Virus record (IMG/VR): IMGVR_UViG_646564533_000005
Length of the DNA: 64,000 bases
Direction: 5' to 3' (one strand)
From: a virus
Taxonomy: Duplodnaviria > Heunggongvirae > Uroviricota > Caudoviricetes
Shown: in pieces, positions 16,112 to 63,042 of the stretch
Numbering within the stretch: the stretch's first letter is position 1
How the letters are laid out: every line of letters starts with the position of its first letter
Position numbers and translations under genes: made by a program
The notes under the pieces: generated by a model
What the model was told of the DNA's origin: nothing
The model's input: the letters and a program-made list of their open reading frames with translations, nothing else
Database searches by the model: none

Positions 16112-16186
16112 GGGTCAGTCGTATAAAGGTCATTACGGAAGGCTGTTAACCTTCTTATCGTGGTTCGAGTCCACGCTGTCCCGCCA
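16112..16186 (+). tRNA. phage tRNA-like gene (anticodon loop CTGTTAA, apparent GUU/Asn; D-arm non-canonical)
   Basis: perfect anticodon and T stems, GGTTCGAGTCC T-arm, CCA end; one acceptor mismatch; folded by hand. Confidence 0.5.
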
Positions 16187-16191
16187 AACAT

Positions 16192-16267
16192 GCTGGTTTA
16201 GCTCCAATGGTAGAGCAACTGACTTGTAATCATCAGGTCGCCAGTTCGATTCCGGTAGTCGGCACCA
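16192..16267 (+). tRNA. phage tRNA-like gene (canonical D-arm TAGCTCCAATGGTAGAGC; weak anticodon stem; identity uncertain, possibly degenerate)
   Basis: acceptor stem with G-U pairs, T-arm TTCGATT, CCA end; loop CTTGTAA. Confidence 0.45.
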
Positions 16268-16270
16268 TAT

Positions 16271-16345
16271 GCGGGTATCATATAATGGCTATTACCTCAG
16301 CCTTCCAGGCTGATGATGCGGGTTCGATTCCCGCTACCCGCTCCA
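16271..16345 (+). tRNA. phage tRNA-like gene (perfect acceptor, anticodon and T stems; anticodon loop CTTCCAG, identity uncertain)
   Basis: 75 nt, 7-bp acceptor, GGTTCGATTCC T-arm, CCA end; folded by hand. Confidence 0.55.
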
Positions 16346-53572: not shown

Positions 53573-54094
53573 TTGAAAGCGCAATTAATTTATCCTGAAT
53601 ATGATCAAGTCATTGTTTCAAGAGAACTTGAGAAAGCAGAGCAAGATATTGAATCATCGAAAGATATATTGAAAGGTATTGTTGATGCACTTGATGATAA
53701 GAAGCAATTATTAAAAGAGTTAAGTGATGAATTATATTCAATCAGTGACAGGGAAAAATACTTATCATTACTCATTGAAAGATTTAGTCTTCTTAAAGAC
53801 CAATACTTTATAGATCTACAAAGAATAGATGTTGTATCACAGGCGAATTTCTATTTAAATAATTTTGCAGATATTTATTGTGAGTTCTGTAATACACCGC
53901 AAAAAAAAGAAAATGAAATATCATATGATGATTGTTTTTTGTCGTGTAATGCAGAAAAATTGAAAATCAAAAGCCAGCTGAAAGGATTAATTGAATCAAT
54001 CGGATCTAATGTTCGCGAACATGAATTAATTATGTTAAGAAAAAATGATGTTAATGAAATTTATCAAGCAGAAAAAGTGATTTTAAGACGTTAG
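53573..54094 (+). CDS. coiled-coil segment (probable ATPase arm), same frame as the preceding fragment
   Basis: heptad-rich Lys/Glu sequence; TTG start without SD; same frame as 53363..53551. Confidence 0.4.
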   Translation: MKAQLIYPEYDQVIVSRELEKAEQDIESSKDILKGIVDALDDKKQLLKELSDELYSISDREKYLSLLIERFSLLKDQYFIDLQRIDVVSQANFYLNNFADIYCEFCNTPQKKENEISYDDCFLSCNAEKLKIKSQLKGLIESIGSNVREHELIMLRKNDVNEIYQAEKVILRR

Positions 54095-54161
54095 AAGATA
54101 AAAATATAAAACAATACATTCATCTCTTGAATCACTTTATGAATATAAAGACAATCTTTTA

Positions 54162-54728
54162 ATGGATCACACAAAACATAGCATTCTATCCTCATTACAA
54201 GATAAAGAAGATGATGTTGACGAACTTAAATACTCCGCCGAGGACTTTGACTCCTTAACAGTAGCTGATTTGTATGATATAGAAATAGCGATGCAAGACT
54301 TTTTGAATGATATAAATTTTGAAAATTCTAAAGATAACAAAGTGCGATTTGACGAAGATACATATGACTTTAATATCAATGGGAAACGCCGAGGAATGTT
54401 TGGTAAAGGTACCCGTGCAGTAATGCATGCTATATTTACCATTTGCTTTGCGGAATTTTTATCAAGAAAAGGGAATCCATTCATTGGATTTGTTGTGCTT
54501 GATAGTCCATTAGTGACGCACTTTGATAAAGATAGAGGGGTTTCTCTATCGGATGTTAATAGCGTCAGTCTCAGTGATTCATTTTATCACGCATTAATCA
54601 AAAGGGACTATAATTTCCAGATTGTAATTCTTGAGAATAAAGGTCCGACGTTCCAAATAAAAATTAATGATGCAAATAAAATCCATAACTTAAATAAGAA
54701 TGGAAGCTCTGGTTTTTATCCTGTTTAA
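54162..54728 (+). CDS. ABC ATPase C-terminal head-like fragment (signature-like and Walker B-like motifs)
   Basis: GMFGKGTRAVMHAIF followed by hydrophobic strand FIGFVVLDSP and THFD; no SD before the ATG. Confidence 0.4.
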   Translation: MDHTKHSILSSLQDKEDDVDELKYSAEDFDSLTVADLYDIEIAMQDFLNDINFENSKDNKVRFDEDTYDFNINGKRRGMFGKGTRAVMHAIFTICFAEFLSRKGNPFIGFVVLDSPLVTHFDKDRGVSLSDVNSVSLSDSFYHALIKRDYNFQIVILENKGPTFQIKINDANKIHNLNKNGSSGFYPV

Positions 54729-56716: not shown

Positions 56717-57634
56717 GTCAGCACCTAGTGGTTTGTCGTGGTGTCAATTGTGCTGTGATGCATACAAAGCTGCCATTGAACGCCATTGTGCGAGCGACAA
56801 GACAAAGACCTCTTTTGGCTAGCCAGAAAAGGCCTCGTTTAACTAAGTCTGTTTCAGACTTACCTTAACTATTCACTACTATTCACTTAGGTAAAAAAAA
56901 TAGGTAATACAGAAGGTTATAAGGTGAAGGGTTGGCATGGCAGTATTCATCGACTGTTCATAACTGTTCACATGGGAATAAAATTATTTATGGTATTTTT
57001 TCATAATGGGTGGTTTTTTTATTCCTCGTAGCTATTTGTTTTTTGCTCCTCACCACTATTCACCCTTATTCAGGAGTATTCAACAGGCACATAAATAGAC
57101 TGCATGTTTTTGCCGGGGAATAACATTTTCGCCTCTGGCCATGGTGTTGCATTTCATACTGATTTTTATAAAACTAGATCTGTCCGGTTCTTTATGGATT
57201 CATTCGGATATATTTTACGATTTAAGGTGATGTTATTTAATATCAAGGTTTTTATGCAGGCCCAATGTTTATAAGTTGGATGCGATTCAAAAATATGCCC
57301 GGAAATTGGGGCCTGCAATGCAAGGCCTCGTGTAGAAGTTGTACTGCCTTGCTGTATTGGCGGTGGGGTTAGCACTATCAGGTGCAATGACCCATAGGAT
57401 AGTAAACCCTGGGGGAATGGTAGTTCCTATTAATGCTCCTGTATTTATAGTCCGCAGGCATGGTATTTATTATGTCATTTTATATGGTTTAATCGGGCTT
57501 TAAATTCCATAAAATCAATATGTGACGCTAAATAAAAAATGCGTGCGCAGGTGGTTTATATACACATAATAAGGAACTACCTGAACCCGGATAAATTCAT
57601 CCGGACTGTTGTGGAAATTAAAGAGGGTAGATAA

Positions 57635-57895: not shown

Positions 57896-58254
57896 TGATA
57901 CCTGCATACATTAAATACCTTTATTCTGGCTTGCTTACTGTCGTCATTTCCAGGTATAGTTTTTCCGCTGTCGCAAAATCGGCAGCCGGAATTGGCGTTC
58001 CGTATAACTTATTGGCGACAATTGACGCCCCTTGCGTCTTTTTTTACGTCGTAGCTCAGGCACAACCATTTTCAGGGCTGTGGTGTTTATGCTTACACCA
58101 TGGTTCTATCGAGATAATGGTAGTCCGGGCGGGGCAGCCTTCGGGCTGGCCGGTTTCCAATAAGGCCGGTTACGCCAACCCCGTTCGGGCTGCCACCAGT
58201 GAAATTGGCGTTTCCGGTGGTAGCAATAACCGCTACTTATTGGAGGCTGCCATC

Positions 58255-58667: not shown

Positions 58668-58990
58668 TGATATGCTGTGAATCTCTTCTGGCACTTCGTG
58701 CCGCTCTGTATCGCCGTGCCGTTGCCTGTGCCTGGCTGGCTCTAAGCAATCATCAGGAACGTTATTCCGGCCTGACGCTCGCTGAACTTGAAGATGCCAT
58801 AGCCCGCGAGCTGGAAGGGTTCTATCTGCGCCAGCATGGGCAGCAAAGAGGGCTGGAAATTGCCTGCGCGTTGCTTTCGGATCTGATGGAGTCGGGGCCG
58901 CTTAAAGCCTGTCCGGTTCTCTCACTGCTCGGAATGACGGTCATGGATGAACTTTGTTCCCGTCACCTCAACAAACCAGCGCTGCACTAA
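58667..58990 (+). CDS. hypothetical protein
   Basis: translationally coupled chain leading into alpha. Confidence 0.4.
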
Positions 58991-59003
58991 GGAGGGCCGC
59001 ACA

Positions 59004-61337
59004 ATGTCAGGAATGAAAGTTAGCCAGGCTGAGAAAGCAGCTCGGGGTCACTGGTCAAGAATTTTACCTGCGCTGGGCGTAAATGTACTGAAAAATCGGC
59101 ACCAGCCCTGCCCGGTCTGTGCCGGGAAAGACCGCTTTCGATTTGATGACCAGGAAGGGCGGGGAACGTGGTTCTGTAACCAGTGCGGGGCAGGTGATGG
59201 CCTGGCGCTTGTAAGTAAAGTACTGGATGTAGGCATTAGTGAAGCGGCAGACAGAATAAACGGCATTATCGGAAACCTGCTGCCAGTATCTCAGGGAATG
59301 CTTGAATCTGGTTCTCCTGAAAAAGAGGACGGGAGAAAAGCTGCAGCAGTGCTGGCTGCCCGTTTGTTTGATAAGTCCCGCCAGACCACTGGCAATGCCT
59401 ATCTGACGAGTAAAGGGTTTCCTGCACTGCCTTGCCGGGAATTAACCGCTATGCATAAAGTCGGTGGTGTGGCATTTCGCGCGGGAGATCTTGTCGTTCC
59501 ATTGTATGCAGATGGAGAGCTGGTAAATCTGCAGTTAATCAACGCTAATGGGGGCAAATGCTTCCTTAAAGGCGGTCAGGTTAAGAATGCCTTTTACCTG
59601 GTTGAAGGTACTGCCAAAGCAGCCAAACGGCTCTGGATAGCGGAAGGATATGCCACCGCACTTACTATCAACTATCTGACTGGCGATGCTGTCATGGTGG
59701 CCTTTTCGTCCGTCAATTTCCTTTCCCTGGCGAGCATTGCCTGCAGTGAGTACCCAACGCACCAGATAATTATTGCTGCTGACCGCGATCTCAACGGTGC
59801 GGGGCAAACAAGGGGCGCAGCTGTTACCGGGGCCTGCAATTGCACAATGGCGCTCCCGCCTGTGTTTGGTGACTGGAACGATGCATTCACGCAAAACGGC
59901 GAAGAAGCCACCCGGCATGCAATTCATGAAGTAATAAAACCAGCTGTTGCCAGCCCCTTCGACACAATGAGCGAAGCTGAATTTACCGCGCTGAGCGTCA
60001 GCGAAAAAGCGCAGAGGGTAGTGGATCACTATAAAAATTCACTGGCAGTAGACCCGAACGGGCAGCTCCTTTCACGCTATGAGGCGGGGGCCTGGAAAGT
60101 TATCTATTACGCCGATTTTGCCCGTGATGTCGCTGCGCTGTTTCAGCGCCTCGACGCACCTTTTTCATCCGCGAAAATTGCGTCTCTCGTGGAAAACCTC
60201 AAACTGATCGTTCCGCAACAGCAGAATCCGGCGCGGCAACTTATCGGATTTCGCAACGGTGTGCTCGATACCCGGACAGGATTGTTCAGCCCGCACGATA
60301 AGAAGCACTGGTTACGTACGCTGTGCGAGGTGGATTACACGCAGCCCGTTGACGGTGAGTCACTGGAAACCCATGCCCCGGCATTCTGGCGCTGGCTGGA
60401 TCGTGCCGCAGGTTTTAATCCTGAAAAACGGGACATTATTCTGGCTGCATTGTTTATGGTGCTGGCTAACCGTTATGACTGGCAGCTGTTTCTGGAGGTC
60501 ACTGGCCCTGGCGGAAGTGGAAAGAGTATTCTTGCTGAAATAGCAACCATGCTGGCGGGTGAAGATAACGCGACCTCGGCAACCATTGAAATGCTTGAGT
60601 CGCCAAGAGAACGAGCTGCGTTAATAGGTTTTTCACTGATTCGACTTCCCGACCAGGAAAAGTGGAGCGGTGACGGGGCCGGACTAAAAGCCATCACTGG
60701 CGGCGATGCGGTATCCGTTGATCCCAAATATCAGAACGCCTATTCAACCCACATCCCGGCGGTCATCCTGGCTGTGAACAATAATCCGATGCGCTTCACT
60801 GATCGTAGTGGTGGAGTTTCACGCCGAAGGGTGATCCTGCATTTCCCCGACCAGATAGCCCCGGAGGAACGCGATACCCAGCTCAAAGAGAAAATTGCCA
60901 GTGAGCTAGCGGTGATTGTTCGCCAGCTTATGCAGCGTTTCAGCGACCCAATGAGTGCCAGGACATTGCTTCAGTCACAGCAGAACTCCGATGAAGCGCT
61001 CACCATCAAACGTGATGCTGATTCAGCTTTTGATTTTTGCGGCTACCTTGAGGTCCTACCTGACACCACGGGCATGTTTATGGGGAACGCTAATATTGTT
61101 CCACGTCAGCCTCGAACTTACCTCTACCATGCCTATCTGGTCTACATGGAGGCTAACGGCTATAAAAATACGCTCAGTCTGACCATGTTTGGCAAGGGGC
61201 TACCGTTAATGCTCAAGGAATATGGGCTGCAGTATGAGAAACGACGGACCAATCAAGGAATGCAGACTAATCTGGCCCTAAGAGAGGAAAGCAATGCTGA
61301 CTGGTTGCCAAAATGCGATGAGTTTGCAGCGAAATAA
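59004..61337 (+). CDS. P4 alpha-type primase-helicase (zinc-binding plus TOPRIM primase plus D5-like helicase)
   Basis: CPVCAGKDRFRFDD...CNQCG zinc motif; Walker A GPGGSGKS; Walker B-like; SD AAGGAGGG upstream. Confidence 0.9.
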   Translation: MSGMKVSQAEKAARGHWSRILPALGVNVLKNRHQPCPVCAGKDRFRFDDQEGRGTWFCNQCGAGDGLALVSKVLDVGISEAADRINGIIGNLLPVSQGMLESGSPEKEDGRKAAAVLAARLFDKSRQTTGNAYLTSKGFPALPCRELTAMHKVGGVAFRAGDLVVPLYADGELVNLQLINANGGKCFLKGGQVKNAFYLVEGTAKAAKRLWIAEGYATALTINYLTGDAVMVAFSSVNFLSLASIACSEYPTHQIIIAADRDLNGAGQTRGAAVTGACNCTMALPPVFGDWNDAFTQNGEEATRHAIHEVIKPAVASPFDTMSEAEFTALSVSEKAQRVVDHYKNSLAVDPNGQLLSRYEAGAWKVIYYADFARDVAALFQRLDAPFSSAKIASLVENLKLIVPQQQNPARQLIGFRNGVLDTRTGLFSPHDKKHWLRTLCEVDYTQPVDGESLETHAPAFWRWLDRAAGFNPEKRDIILAALFMVLANRYDWQLFLEVTGPGGSGKSILAEIATMLAGEDNATSATIEMLESPRERAALIGFSLIRLPDQEKWSGDGAGLKAITGGDAVSVDPKYQNAYSTHIPAVILAVNNNPMRFTDRSGGVSRRRVILHFPDQIAPEERDTQLKEKIASELAVIVRQLMQRFSDPMSARTLLQSQQNSDEALTIKRDADSAFDFCGYLEVLPDTTGMFMGNANIVPRQPRTYLYHAYLVYMEANGYKNTLSLTMFGKGLPLMLKEYGLQYEKRRTNQGMQTNLALREESNADWLPKCDEFAAK

Positions 61338-61344
61338 CTGACCT

Positions 61345-61368
61345 AAGACCGGCTGTGCCGGTCTTAAA
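61345..61368 (+). terminator. stable hairpin after alpha (no U-tract)
   Basis: AAGACCGGC-tgt-GCCGGTCTT perfect 9-bp stem. Confidence 0.35.
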
Positions 61369-61469
61369 TCCGCTACAGGAAATTATCTCAAAATATATAT
61401 CGATAAAATTTAAAAGTTATATGCTAAGGCGTCAGCGGAAAATGCATCTAATTCATTGTTAGATGATGT

Positions 61470-62426
61470 TTATTTTTGAATTGATTTAAACATCCCATCG
61501 AGTTGTAATTTATTTATGTCGGTTTTCTTTATGGCTTTAATTAAGTTTTCAATAACTTCCAAAGAAAAAATTACATCTTTCTTTTCAATTCTAACCCCCC
61601 CGTGGTGGCTGCAAGCATTAAGGATGTCCTTTGTAATTTCAACATCATTTTTCATTAATGGTTCATAGTCCAGAGCCTCAATAACAGAAACTAAACTACC
61701 TAGCATTTGCTCTTGGTATTGAACGTTGTTTAAATGCATTATACGAATATTAACAAGCATGAGAATATATTCTAAATATCTCCTGGCAGTATTTCCTTTC
61801 TCTTGTAAAGAATCACGATCATATTCCTCAATACTCATGACTTCATTATGTAAAGAGGCTATTTTGTGCTCTGCTAATGAAATATTTATCGCATCCATGA
61901 GGTTTCGTGAGAAGCCTGTAGATGTAACATGACCATTTGCGGGCCTTGTTAAAATACATGTAGTATAGCAATTTATATTTGGGGTCTGGATTGTCTCATT
62001 TACTCTTTTAACCGTTCTATAAACGTCTACCATATAAGAACCTGAGTTTTCAAATGAACATGAAGAGCATTTTGTATTATATATTCTATTTAGAGATAAC
62101 TGATTGTGATAGTATCCCTTTAAGAAAGCATATATAGTGTCATTAAACTCGACAAACACAACGGACTCAATATATATATGGAATTTATCATTGGGGTGCC
62201 ACTCTAATTCAAGTCTTCTTGTAGAGTCATCAAAGGAAAAGTTTGAAATAAAATTCCAGTTACCTAAATCTATAAAATCAACGATATTTCTACCTGCACC
62301 ATGGATATTTTTATTTATTAAAGTTGTGATTGAGTTTTTTATAATATCCCAATCATGAATTTCATGATCGAATTTATTATTGATGGTTTCTTTTATTTGA
62401 TTGGAAAAGTTTGAATAACTAGTCAC
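61470..62426 (-). CDS. orphan AT-rich protein of unknown function (318 aa), att-proximal cargo
   Basis: long ORF with strongly AT-biased codons; Asn/Ile/Lys-rich; no family recognised. Confidence 0.55.
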   Translation of the reverse strand: MTSYSNFSNQIKETINNKFDHEIHDWDIIKNSITTLINKNIHGAGRNIVDFIDLGNWNFISNFSFDDSTRRLELEWHPNDKFHIYIESVVFVEFNDTIYAFLKGYYHNQLSLNRIYNTKCSSCSFENSGSYMVDVYRTVKRVNETIQTPNINCYTTCILTRPANGHVTSTGFSRNLMDAINISLAEHKIASLHNEVMSIEEYDRDSLQEKGNTARRYLEYILMLVNIRIMHLNNVQYQEQMLGSLVSVIEALDYEPLMKNDVEITKDILNACSHHGGVRIEKKDVIFSLEVIENLIKAIKKTDINKLQLDGMFKSIQK

Positions 62427-62940
62427 TTGTTAGCCTCAAAATTAATAATGAGTATTAAAATTTAATTGATATTGTCTATAAAATGTAGCGATGCAATTTT
62501 ATTGCAACGAAATGATTTTTACAACATACCATTATCGCTAAACAAAATCGCACCCATCAAATCAACTTACGTTACAATCACTACAAAGCGATTGCATTTA
62601 AATTCAAAACAGTTTTCTGTTGGGCGCATTTTTTGTTGTACTGGACTAAAGAGAAAAAATGGGGTAAGGAACAAATACCTTCCGTGCTCAAAAATTAGGT
62701 TTTTATGCACTTATTAATCAGTCAAGGTGAACAGTAAAGTGTTCACTTCTTATCAATCGTTAATTTCATATCTTTTTGAATATTAATGAAAAAAACACAA
62801 TGAGTAGTATGAACAGTTTTCCCCCAAAAAAAGTTTTTTCTGCCTTGAGAATGCGCGGAAAGCGAACGCCTTCACCAATGTGTATAGGGGGGTGTGTAGT
62901 TTAAATCTTCTATTTTAATTTATGTATTAAAATCATTGTG

Positions 62941-62974
62941 TTGGTGGCGATTATTGGTTCCTATTATCGCACCA
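62941..62974. repeat. att core, copy 3 (degenerate, with deletions), right border
   Basis: ggttc-ctattatcg-cacca aligns to the thrW 3' end with two short deletions. Confidence 0.6.
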
Positions 62975-63042
62975 TTTAAATCAAGTAGTTACCCCATATT
63001 TAAATACACCACGTTTCCTCCTGTGCCGCATTTGTGCCATTG
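62975..63042. other. fossil integrase 3'-end remnant (diverged copy of 1092-1160)
   Basis: about 85 percent identical by eye to the segment right after thrW that encodes the int C-terminus. Confidence 0.55.

Follow-up and report, generated by a model that had tools for sequence, protein, structure and literature searches.

ORF318 is an open reading frame (ORF) of 318 amino acids (aa) on the minus strand at positions 61470-62426 of a 64,000-nucleotide (nt) stretch of DNA from the IMG/VR virus record IMGVR_UViG_646564533_000005 (Caudoviricetes), to which we refer as the window. The window covers the thrW locus of E. coli of the O157:H7/O55:H7 type and ORF318 lies there in a P4-like satellite. 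With a probability of about 0.6 we consider ORF318 to be a stand-alone, single-gene cargo in the slot between the alpha gene and the att site, which combines an N-terminal beta-rich domain with a C-terminal HEPN domain of the PrrC/RloC type and acts as a phage-activated tRNA or RNA nuclease in abortive defence. The evidence consists of a real gene under selection, its position as mobile cargo, its predicted fold, an invariant residue triad and the defence neighbourhoods of its homologues. From these we infer the RNase activity and its tRNA target, a latent state that ends on activation, and an anti-phage phenotype, the last by guilt by association and by domain logic.

A conserved gene under selection

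A first-pass annotation of the window had described a long minus-strand ORF of 318 aa with AT-biased composition, and both points were borne out. The ORF list and RefSeq agree on the coding sequence (CDS), which includes the stop codon: in E. coli O157:H7 PV15-279 a 957-bp CDS with identical coordinates and length is recorded as 'hypothetical protein' (WP_000205213.1), and in strain Sakai the same 957-bp CDS is ECs_0304 (ECs0304), the final gene of 'prophage Sp2, P4-like phage'. Practically all of the O157:H7/O55:H7 lineage, including Sakai and EDL933, carries the gene. The start codon is GTG, where the homologues have ATG, and a Shine-Dalgarno sequence (GAGG, 62434-62437, minus strand) is located 7 nt upstream of it. 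The G+C content (GC) is 0.31 for the gene and 0.28 for its third codon positions (GC3), compared to 0.50-0.57 for the alpha gene. A random ORF, the outcome named in the first-pass annotation as fatal to its own reading, can be excluded. As stop codons are AT-rich, the chance of 318 sense codons at the composition of this block is only ~4e-12, and when the 1.6-kb block was shuffled (n=2,000) the longest open stretch reached 161 codons, compared to the 319 observed.

The first homologue search returned ~35 clusters with identities from 80% to 43%, all of them unnamed and without Pfam domains, from Enterobacterales (Citrobacter, Providencia, Pantoea, Pectobacterium, Proteus, Serratia, Salmonella, Enterobacter, Klebsiella, Buttiauxella) and from Aeromonas. 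When 1.84 billion representatives were searched exhaustively with a profile, the superfamily comprised 108 clusters (50% identity) at E <=1e-3 and is thus rare; at least one member comes from the Firmicute Paenibacillus. A second large search with the superfamily alignment added two usable proteins. The pairwise ratios of non-synonymous to synonymous substitution rates (dN/dS) were between 0.06 and 0.26, which indicates purifying selection. All database copies of the family are named 'hypothetical protein'. We obtained no credible family match for ORF318 in Pfam, NCBIfam, PADLOC or PHROGs (the Pfam and PADLOC scans went up to E 1, and 0 families matched among the 5,027 models of PADLOC-DB 2.0), and literature searches for WP_000205213 or ECs0304 matched no papers. 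We conclude that ORF318 is a real, conserved gene under selection.

All copies that we examined are AT-rich with a GC of 0.29-0.35, including those from Aeromonas and Serratia. The DNA similarity between loci extends over the CDS and no further than 30 nt ahead of its start. The gene thus moves as a bare single-gene cassette without a conserved partner.

Predicted structure and putative active site

The AlphaFold2 model of ORF318, based on an alignment of 33 sequences, is confident (predicted local distance difference test, pLDDT, 87.7; predicted template modelling score, pTM, 0.83) and shows two domains. For the C-terminal domain (C-domain; aa 170-318, 61473-61919, minus strand) it predicts a HEPN fold of the PrrC/RloC anticodon-nuclease type. 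The N-terminal alpha/beta domain (N-domain; aa 1-160, 61947-62426, minus strand) consists of two helices and an antiparallel sheet and carries an invariant acidic cluster, VDFIDxGxW(D/N). The fold search with this domain led to YojF, HemS and PH-like folds. It resembles ligand- or peptide-binding folds and, going by the model, is a putative sensor or regulatory module. The identity to YojF of B. subtilis (PDB 1njh), a protein without known function, and to HemS/ChuX- and PH-like beta domains is just 7-12%, and the acidic cluster has no known counterpart.

The pattern VDFID...E...K had led us to consider the N-domain as a PD-(D/E)xK nuclease; we rejected this since the fold search showed no nuclease. 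A profile search of the PDB sequences returned designed helical proteins only (E ~0.7), and a Foldseek search against viral structures gave nothing significant, the best match being an 'RNaseLS-like protein' (E 0.011, probability 0.21). The domain composition varies across the superfamily (proteins P0049, P0068 and P0074-P0142): some proteins are 470-610 aa long and have an extra N-terminal region of ~170-200 aa, DUF3775 was matched by five of the 22 superfamily proteins scanned (best E 3e-7), and other members consist of the C-domain only (~160-200 aa).

By eye, no catalytic motif had been recognisable in the first-pass annotation. This statement is superseded by an invariant R-x3-E...S-H nuclease signature. 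We counted conservation over 52 relatives which are only ~20% identical: R215, E219, H274 and G277 are invariant (52/52), N270 and S273 are each found in 49 and K223 in 45 of the relatives, with a Met at the latter position in the clade of ORF318. The segment R215-R-Y-L-E219-Y-I-L-M223 (61758-61784, minus strand) provides the Arg-x3-Glu of the putative triad on HEPN helix 2, where the superfamily consensus is Ex3K, and the segment N270-A-C-S273-H274-H-G-G277 (61596-61619, minus strand) provides the putative triad His where HEPN helix 3 ends. In the model, R215 and E219 (and K223 in the consensus) are on the helix formed by residues 204-229, followed by a short insert helix (242-250) and a helix (261-273) with N270...S273 at its end; the loop leading to the helix 282-301 begins with H274.

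HEPN sites as described by Anantharaman et al. (2013; PMC3710099) show a polar residue after the Arg, an acidic residue on helix 2, often as Ex3[K/R], and an insert that separates helix 2 from helix 3. The His of the Rx4-6H motif falls where helix 3 ends or the next loop starts, and a polar residue (N, D or H) precedes it by four positions (PMC3710099). The model of ORF318 agrees with this layout, and in the family we found the His at the end of helix 3 with an N four positions before it, and the acidic residue of helix 2 as Ex3[K/R].

Two observations weigh against a HEPN nuclease. The canonical Arg of Rx4-6H is lost, position 269 being L, A, S, T, C or I and never basic (Leu in ORF318), and the family thus lacks one defining HEPN feature and shows the others. 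There was also no significant profile match to a curated family of the HEPN clan, ORF318 having no Pfam match at E <=1. Among short relatives made up of the C-domain alone, the matches stayed below the curated cut-offs: P0115 matched the C-terminus of AAA_13 with E 3.9e-5 (23 bits, cut-off 36) and two others matched DUF4145 (E 0.07) and HEPN_Swt1 (E 0.14). HEPN variants without the Arg that are probably active exist, for example Parep1/8 (PMC3710099), and the invariant R215 on helix 2 is a candidate substitute for the canonical motif Arg.

HEPN domains without the motif can also be non-catalytic binders (PMC3710099). ORF318 might then bind RNA, a nucleotide or a protein and serve the mobile element as a regulator, an anti-defence factor or a counter-helper factor, for which the missing Arg, the likeness of the N-domain to ligand- or peptide-binding folds and the orphan methylase and ArdC beside the Citrobacter copy (see below) can be cited. 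We consider this unlikely. R215, E219 and H274, together with S273 and N270, are kept across relatives of 20% identity, which exceeds the usual conservation of a binding domain, and they match a proven catalytic triad. Furthermore, the neighbours of the homologues are mostly defence systems and not anti-defence genes.

Relation to PrrC, RloC and other HEPN nucleases

The triad of PrrC (R320, E324 and H356) was established by mutagenesis and chemical rescue (PMC1484252). For RloC the pattern is 'Arg-X3-Glu-X36-52-His', often with a Ser before the His, and the R692A, E696A and H737A mutants are inactive and non-toxic (PMC2610378). The corresponding pattern in ORF318 is R215-X3-E219-X54-S273-H274. 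The layout resembles that of PrrC and RloC in that the Arg-x3-Glu is on one helix, the Ser-His follows ~50 residues further on and the fold is HEPN; the spacer between E and H is slightly longer (50-70 across the family compared to 36-52) and falls into the range 36-52 in only seven of the 52 relatives.

We compared ORF318 to the RloC-type protein encoded near its homologue in Salmonella. The C-terminus of the latter reads ...FNTMRNILEYYF...AINRHSHSDG... compared to ...GNTARRYLEYIL...ILNACSHHGG... in ORF318, and the local motifs NTxRxxLEY and NxxSHxxG are nearly identical. An hhalign comparison of the superfamily C-domain to a cleaned and shallow RloC-type profile gave an E of 1.6e-4, a probability of 51% and a score of 31 over 89 columns with the motifs in register, whereas the controls with 30 column-shuffled templates reached at most a probability of 1.6% and a score of 18. 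With BLASTP the match between the C-domain and the RloC-type C-terminus was not significant (E 1.2). Judging from these comparisons the nuclease domain is probably homologous to the PrrC/RloC type, though this falls short of proof. We take AAA_13 (PF13166) to be the PrrC/RloC family, because PF13166 is found in proteins related to an AAA_13 C-terminus, one of which is named 'wobble nucleotide-excising tRNase'; ORF318 itself has no AAA_13 match.

Further likenesses are that both kinds of genes adjoin restriction-modification (R-M) and other defence genes and that a GTG start, associated with weak initiation, has been noted for RloC too. The differences are considerable. ORF318 lacks the ABC ATPase, the zinc hook and the coiled coil, and its beta-rich domain of 160 aa replaces the N-terminal two-thirds, so that it measures 318 aa compared to 396 for PrrC and ~800 for RloC. 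The linkage to R-M is not obligatory. As the N-domain is a beta-rich fold without a P-loop, ORF318 is not an orthologue of PrrC or RloC.

ApeA likewise has an uncharacterised N-terminal part and a C-terminal HEPN domain encoded by one gene, and cleaves the tRNA anticodon after activation by a ligand, the trigger being deoxydinucleotides. It differs from ORF318 by its length (~570 aa), its canonical catalytic R502 and its decamer or dodecamer rings, and the N-domains are apparently unrelated. PADLOC, which presumably includes models for ApeA, does not match ORF318. HepS, the 'HEPN solo' abortive-infection protein of Gifsy-1, and DARNA resemble ORF318 as single HEPN proteins that are borne by mobile elements and have no partner. 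HepS stays latent until it meets the tail tip protein and DARNA until it meets single-stranded DNA (ssDNA) bound by SSB; both cleave tRNA anticodon loops. HepS is a bare HEPN domain with the canonical R100-x4-H105. DARNA has an N-terminal HEPN domain (R117/H122) and a helical C-terminal ssDNA sensor, whereas in ORF318 the order is reversed, the partner domain is beta-rich and the motif Arg is absent. Since HepS, DARNA and ApeA have other architectures and the canonical Rx4-6H, ORF318 would belong to a separate family with a similar kind of function: a new, unannotated family within the known class of mobile-element HEPN abortive-infection nucleases, whose architecture is unusual and minimal.

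Genomic contexts of the homologues

We sampled 13 genomic contexts, the window included, and encountered mobile elements or defence neighbourhoods in nine of them (the window and eight more). In the window ORF318 is the sole gene between alpha and attR of the P4-like satellite. In another thrW island of E. coli the homologue directly follows the integrase and is itself followed by the candidate system PDC-M60 A/B/C, and on a further E. coli contig it adjoins a resolvase and a protein of 1,522 aa. In an integrative and conjugative element (ICE) of Citrobacter it is flanked by an N6/N4 methylase and ArdC, with Septu (PtuA 4e-200, PtuB 2e-98) and a type I R-M system alongside. The Providencia copy ends a satellite-like element, behind an Ogr/Delta gene, and the Salmonella copy is located on a plasmid-like contig near a RelA/SpoT-domain gene, ParDE, TacAT and the RloC-type gene. 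In Pantoea we found one copy at the edge of a lambdoid prophage and another by a module of a C5 methylase and a HATPase. The Paenibacillus homologue lies between PLD-nuclease genes and a full-length Gabija system (GajA 8e-206, GajB 4e-155), and the copy on a metagenome contig adjoins an MmeI-like R-M enzyme. The other four of the 13 contexts (Proteus, Serratia, Aeromonas and Enterobacter) are solitary islets amid housekeeping genes. The earlier suggestion of a possible single-gene abortive-infection or defence protein is supported by inference: the HEPN fold, the PrrC/RloC-type triad and the defence-island neighbourhoods speak for it.

No partner gene is conserved across the 13 contexts, and the same is true for an antitoxin gene or RNA. 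This bears on the question whether ORF318 is an addiction or stabilisation toxin, that is, a HEPN nuclease which mainly penalises the loss of the mobile element and is restrained by auto-inhibition in cis or by an unrecognised antitoxin. The gene is frequent on mobile elements, the Salmonella copy is found amid ParDE and TacAT modules, and the top structural matches include HepT-type HEPN toxins (8xdj, 7ae2, 5yep). Toxin-antitoxin and abortive-infection functions overlap in practice. Nevertheless we regard such a role as rather improbable: the homology ends at the CDS without a conserved partner, neither an MNT nor another antitoxin gene is adjacent in the window, no non-coding RNA was detected beside ORF318, and several copies reside in stable chromosomal islets.

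Two contexts contain long proteins encoded directly upstream of the homologue, one of 1,586 aa in Paenibacillus (L023, 3707-8467) and the above-mentioned one of 1,522 aa in E. coli (L012, 3722-8290). Neither has a Pfam or PADLOC match, and the setting is defence-island-like. In the Pantoea clade alone we observed a recurrent gene for 351 aa without a Pfam domain, which precedes the homologue by 26 nt in two contexts (L032, L033, 6919-7974) and may be a clade-specific partner.

The cargo slot of the satellite

At the thrW locus the tRNA-Thr(CGU) gene (1016-1091) is followed first by a prophage of ~48 kb, then by another copy of the tRNA 3' end (~50059-50105) and finally by the P4-like satellite. 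The order of the satellite is int, AT-rich cargo, delta/psu/sid, C4 RNA, alpha, ORF318 and a degenerate att copy, beyond which a core LysR gene follows. The left anchor of the slot is the alpha primase-helicase gene (58947-61337, plus strand). Between the convergent alpha and ORF318 there is a G+C hairpin (61340-61370, with a 10-bp stem at 61344-61366), which is homologous to the t-alpha terminator of P4 and is positioned to terminate both genes. Similarity to phage P4 stops at 61365, with the alpha stop and the t-alpha hairpin. Similarity to core E. coli restarts at 62959, where the 3' end of tRNA-Thr is found in strains with an empty site, and the right boundary of the island is attR, a degenerate copy of the tRNA-Thr 3' end (~62959-62985, plus strand). 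We found no second credible gene in the interval from the alpha terminator to attR, in agreement with the earlier description of ORF318 as alone between the hairpin and the att copy.

Of 5,426 complete E. coli genomes only 306 contain the 1.6-kb interval between P4-like and core DNA. In the sister thrW satellites, with an alpha 86% identical, the homology breaks at 61316 and resumes at 62951, and the interval from 61317 to 62950 is swapped. The same slot contains a different single gene in these satellites, which encodes a SIR2-like protein of 365 aa (PADLOC SIR2 models 3.5e-9, no Pfam match; L026, 5730-6827, from E. coli CFSAN064035, and L027), lies on the strand of alpha and has a GC of 0.36. 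ORF318 thus shows what characterises cargo of this slot: it is placed between alpha and att, where the content varies among related satellites, and its composition is foreign. Taken together with the end of P4 homology at the alpha terminator and the restriction of similarity among homologues to the CDS, this upholds the reading as cargo that was gained by horizontal transfer and occupies one of the variable ends of the satellite.

The stretch from primase to att has been described as a minor defence hotspot, with 7% of the defence systems in P4-like satellites (NAR 2026 survey). ORF318 occupies this slot and lies outside the experimentally studied main hotspot between int and psu (Rousset et al. 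2022; NAR 2026), and it is absent among the systems described or tested in these two studies. That ORF318 is a gene of the satellite life cycle with a role in P4-like replication, helper exploitation or packaging is very improbable, as it is missing from P4 and from the sister satellites, is found in ICEs, plasmids, prophages and chromosomal islets without satellite genes and has a composition foreign to the satellite core, despite its location within the att-delimited element just downstream of alpha, where P4 has crr.

Proposed mechanism and significance

As a phage-activated nuclease, ORF318 would be made from its own promoter and stay latent until an infection cue is sensed via the N-domain, which would stand in for the regulatory ABC ATPase of PrrC and RloC. 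Sensing would unmask or assemble the HEPN site; like other HEPN enzymes, ORF318 would probably form this site across a dimer. Within it R215 would stabilise the transition state, with E219 serving as the general base and H274 as the general acid. Once active, the enzyme would cleave the anticodon loops of tRNAs, or RNA of another kind, in a metal-free reaction; translation would halt and the infection abort, which would protect the clonal population and the satellite.

In its widest form, to which we give slightly less than even odds, the proposal is that of a new, ATPase-independent class of the PrrC/RloC type, in which a YojF-like domain with an acidic pocket would sense the infection signal directly and the helix-2 Arg would replace the motif Arg. 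ORF318 would then be a new single-gene defence system of O157:H7 reference strains, and the interval between alpha and att would be a dedicated site for swapping single-gene effectors, HEPN here and SIR2 in the sister satellites.

If the defence reading is true, ORF318 stands for an unannotated single-gene defence family, a minimal relative of PrrC and RloC that dispenses with the ATPase, and would shed light on how HEPN nucleases stay latent and switch on. It would also provide a function for a gene found across the O157:H7/O55:H7 lineage, with a bearing on phage-based control or typing, and put the primase-att hotspot of P4-like satellites, which has received little study, on an experimental footing. 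The prediction of R215, E219 and H274 as the triad makes the hypothesis directly testable.

Other features of the locus

The start of ORF318 and attR are separated by ~530 bp of AT-rich non-coding DNA. Its part next to the gene (62427-62720) contains sigma-70-like hexamer pairs on the minus strand at 62451-62560 and probably holds the promoter region of ORF318, although the individual hexamers are statistically indistinguishable in AT-rich DNA. Towards attR there is a candidate integrase arm-type site, ATGTGTATAG(G) (62878-62887, plus strand). The motif (A)TGTGTATAGG occurs in three copies beside the int-proximal att (50216, 50259 and 50316) and once at 62878, and in the sister satellite L026 TGTGTATAGG is found twice ahead of attR (7134 and 7146). 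We regard these repeats as candidate arm-type sites that are unlike the TTGGGGGCAT arm repeats of P4. Read in this way, the copy at 62878 would place ORF318 inside the mobilised element.

In P4 the interval between alpha and att harbours the crr replication repeats. Here we detected just one inverted pair of octamers similar to the type-1 iterons of P4, GGTGAACA ... TGTTCACT (62726-62747), which is a possible remnant or equivalent of crr. A P4-style crr was rejected, since there are no 120-bp repeats in the interval and merely these two octamers. In total we counted four such octamers (TGTTCACC, at most one mismatch), at 62726-62747 and at 56965 and 57057 (crr- and ori-equivalent, respectively), compared to 16 in P4. 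Either the alpha protein uses other sites or the cis elements for replication have decayed.

A third degenerate att-like copy, ATCGCACCCATCAAATCAA (attR: ATCGCACCATTTAAATCAA), is located at 62531-62565, ~100 bp upstream of the start of ORF318, and could be the relic of an older insertion or a chance match. We rejected it as the true attR because the core homology begins at 62959 and the candidate arm site is at 62878.

The ~48-kb prophage at 1092-50058, between tRNA-Thr and the satellite, creates a tandem array at thrW and encodes its own tRNA-Asn and tRNA-Gly (16112-16345). At the same place Sakai has only a lambda-like remnant of 10.6 kb (Sp1) and PV15-279 has nothing. The main int-psu hotspot of the satellite (51452-54728) has a GC of 0.27-0.34, and RefSeq lists an 'ABC-three component system' and hypothetical genes there in sister strains, with an additional AAA ATPase pseudogene in Sakai. 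With this AT-rich content and ORF318 the satellite therefore has cargo at both ends. Rfam identified isrK (57967-58044) and the C4 antisense RNA (58113-58200), and the P4-type immunity RNA region is intact.
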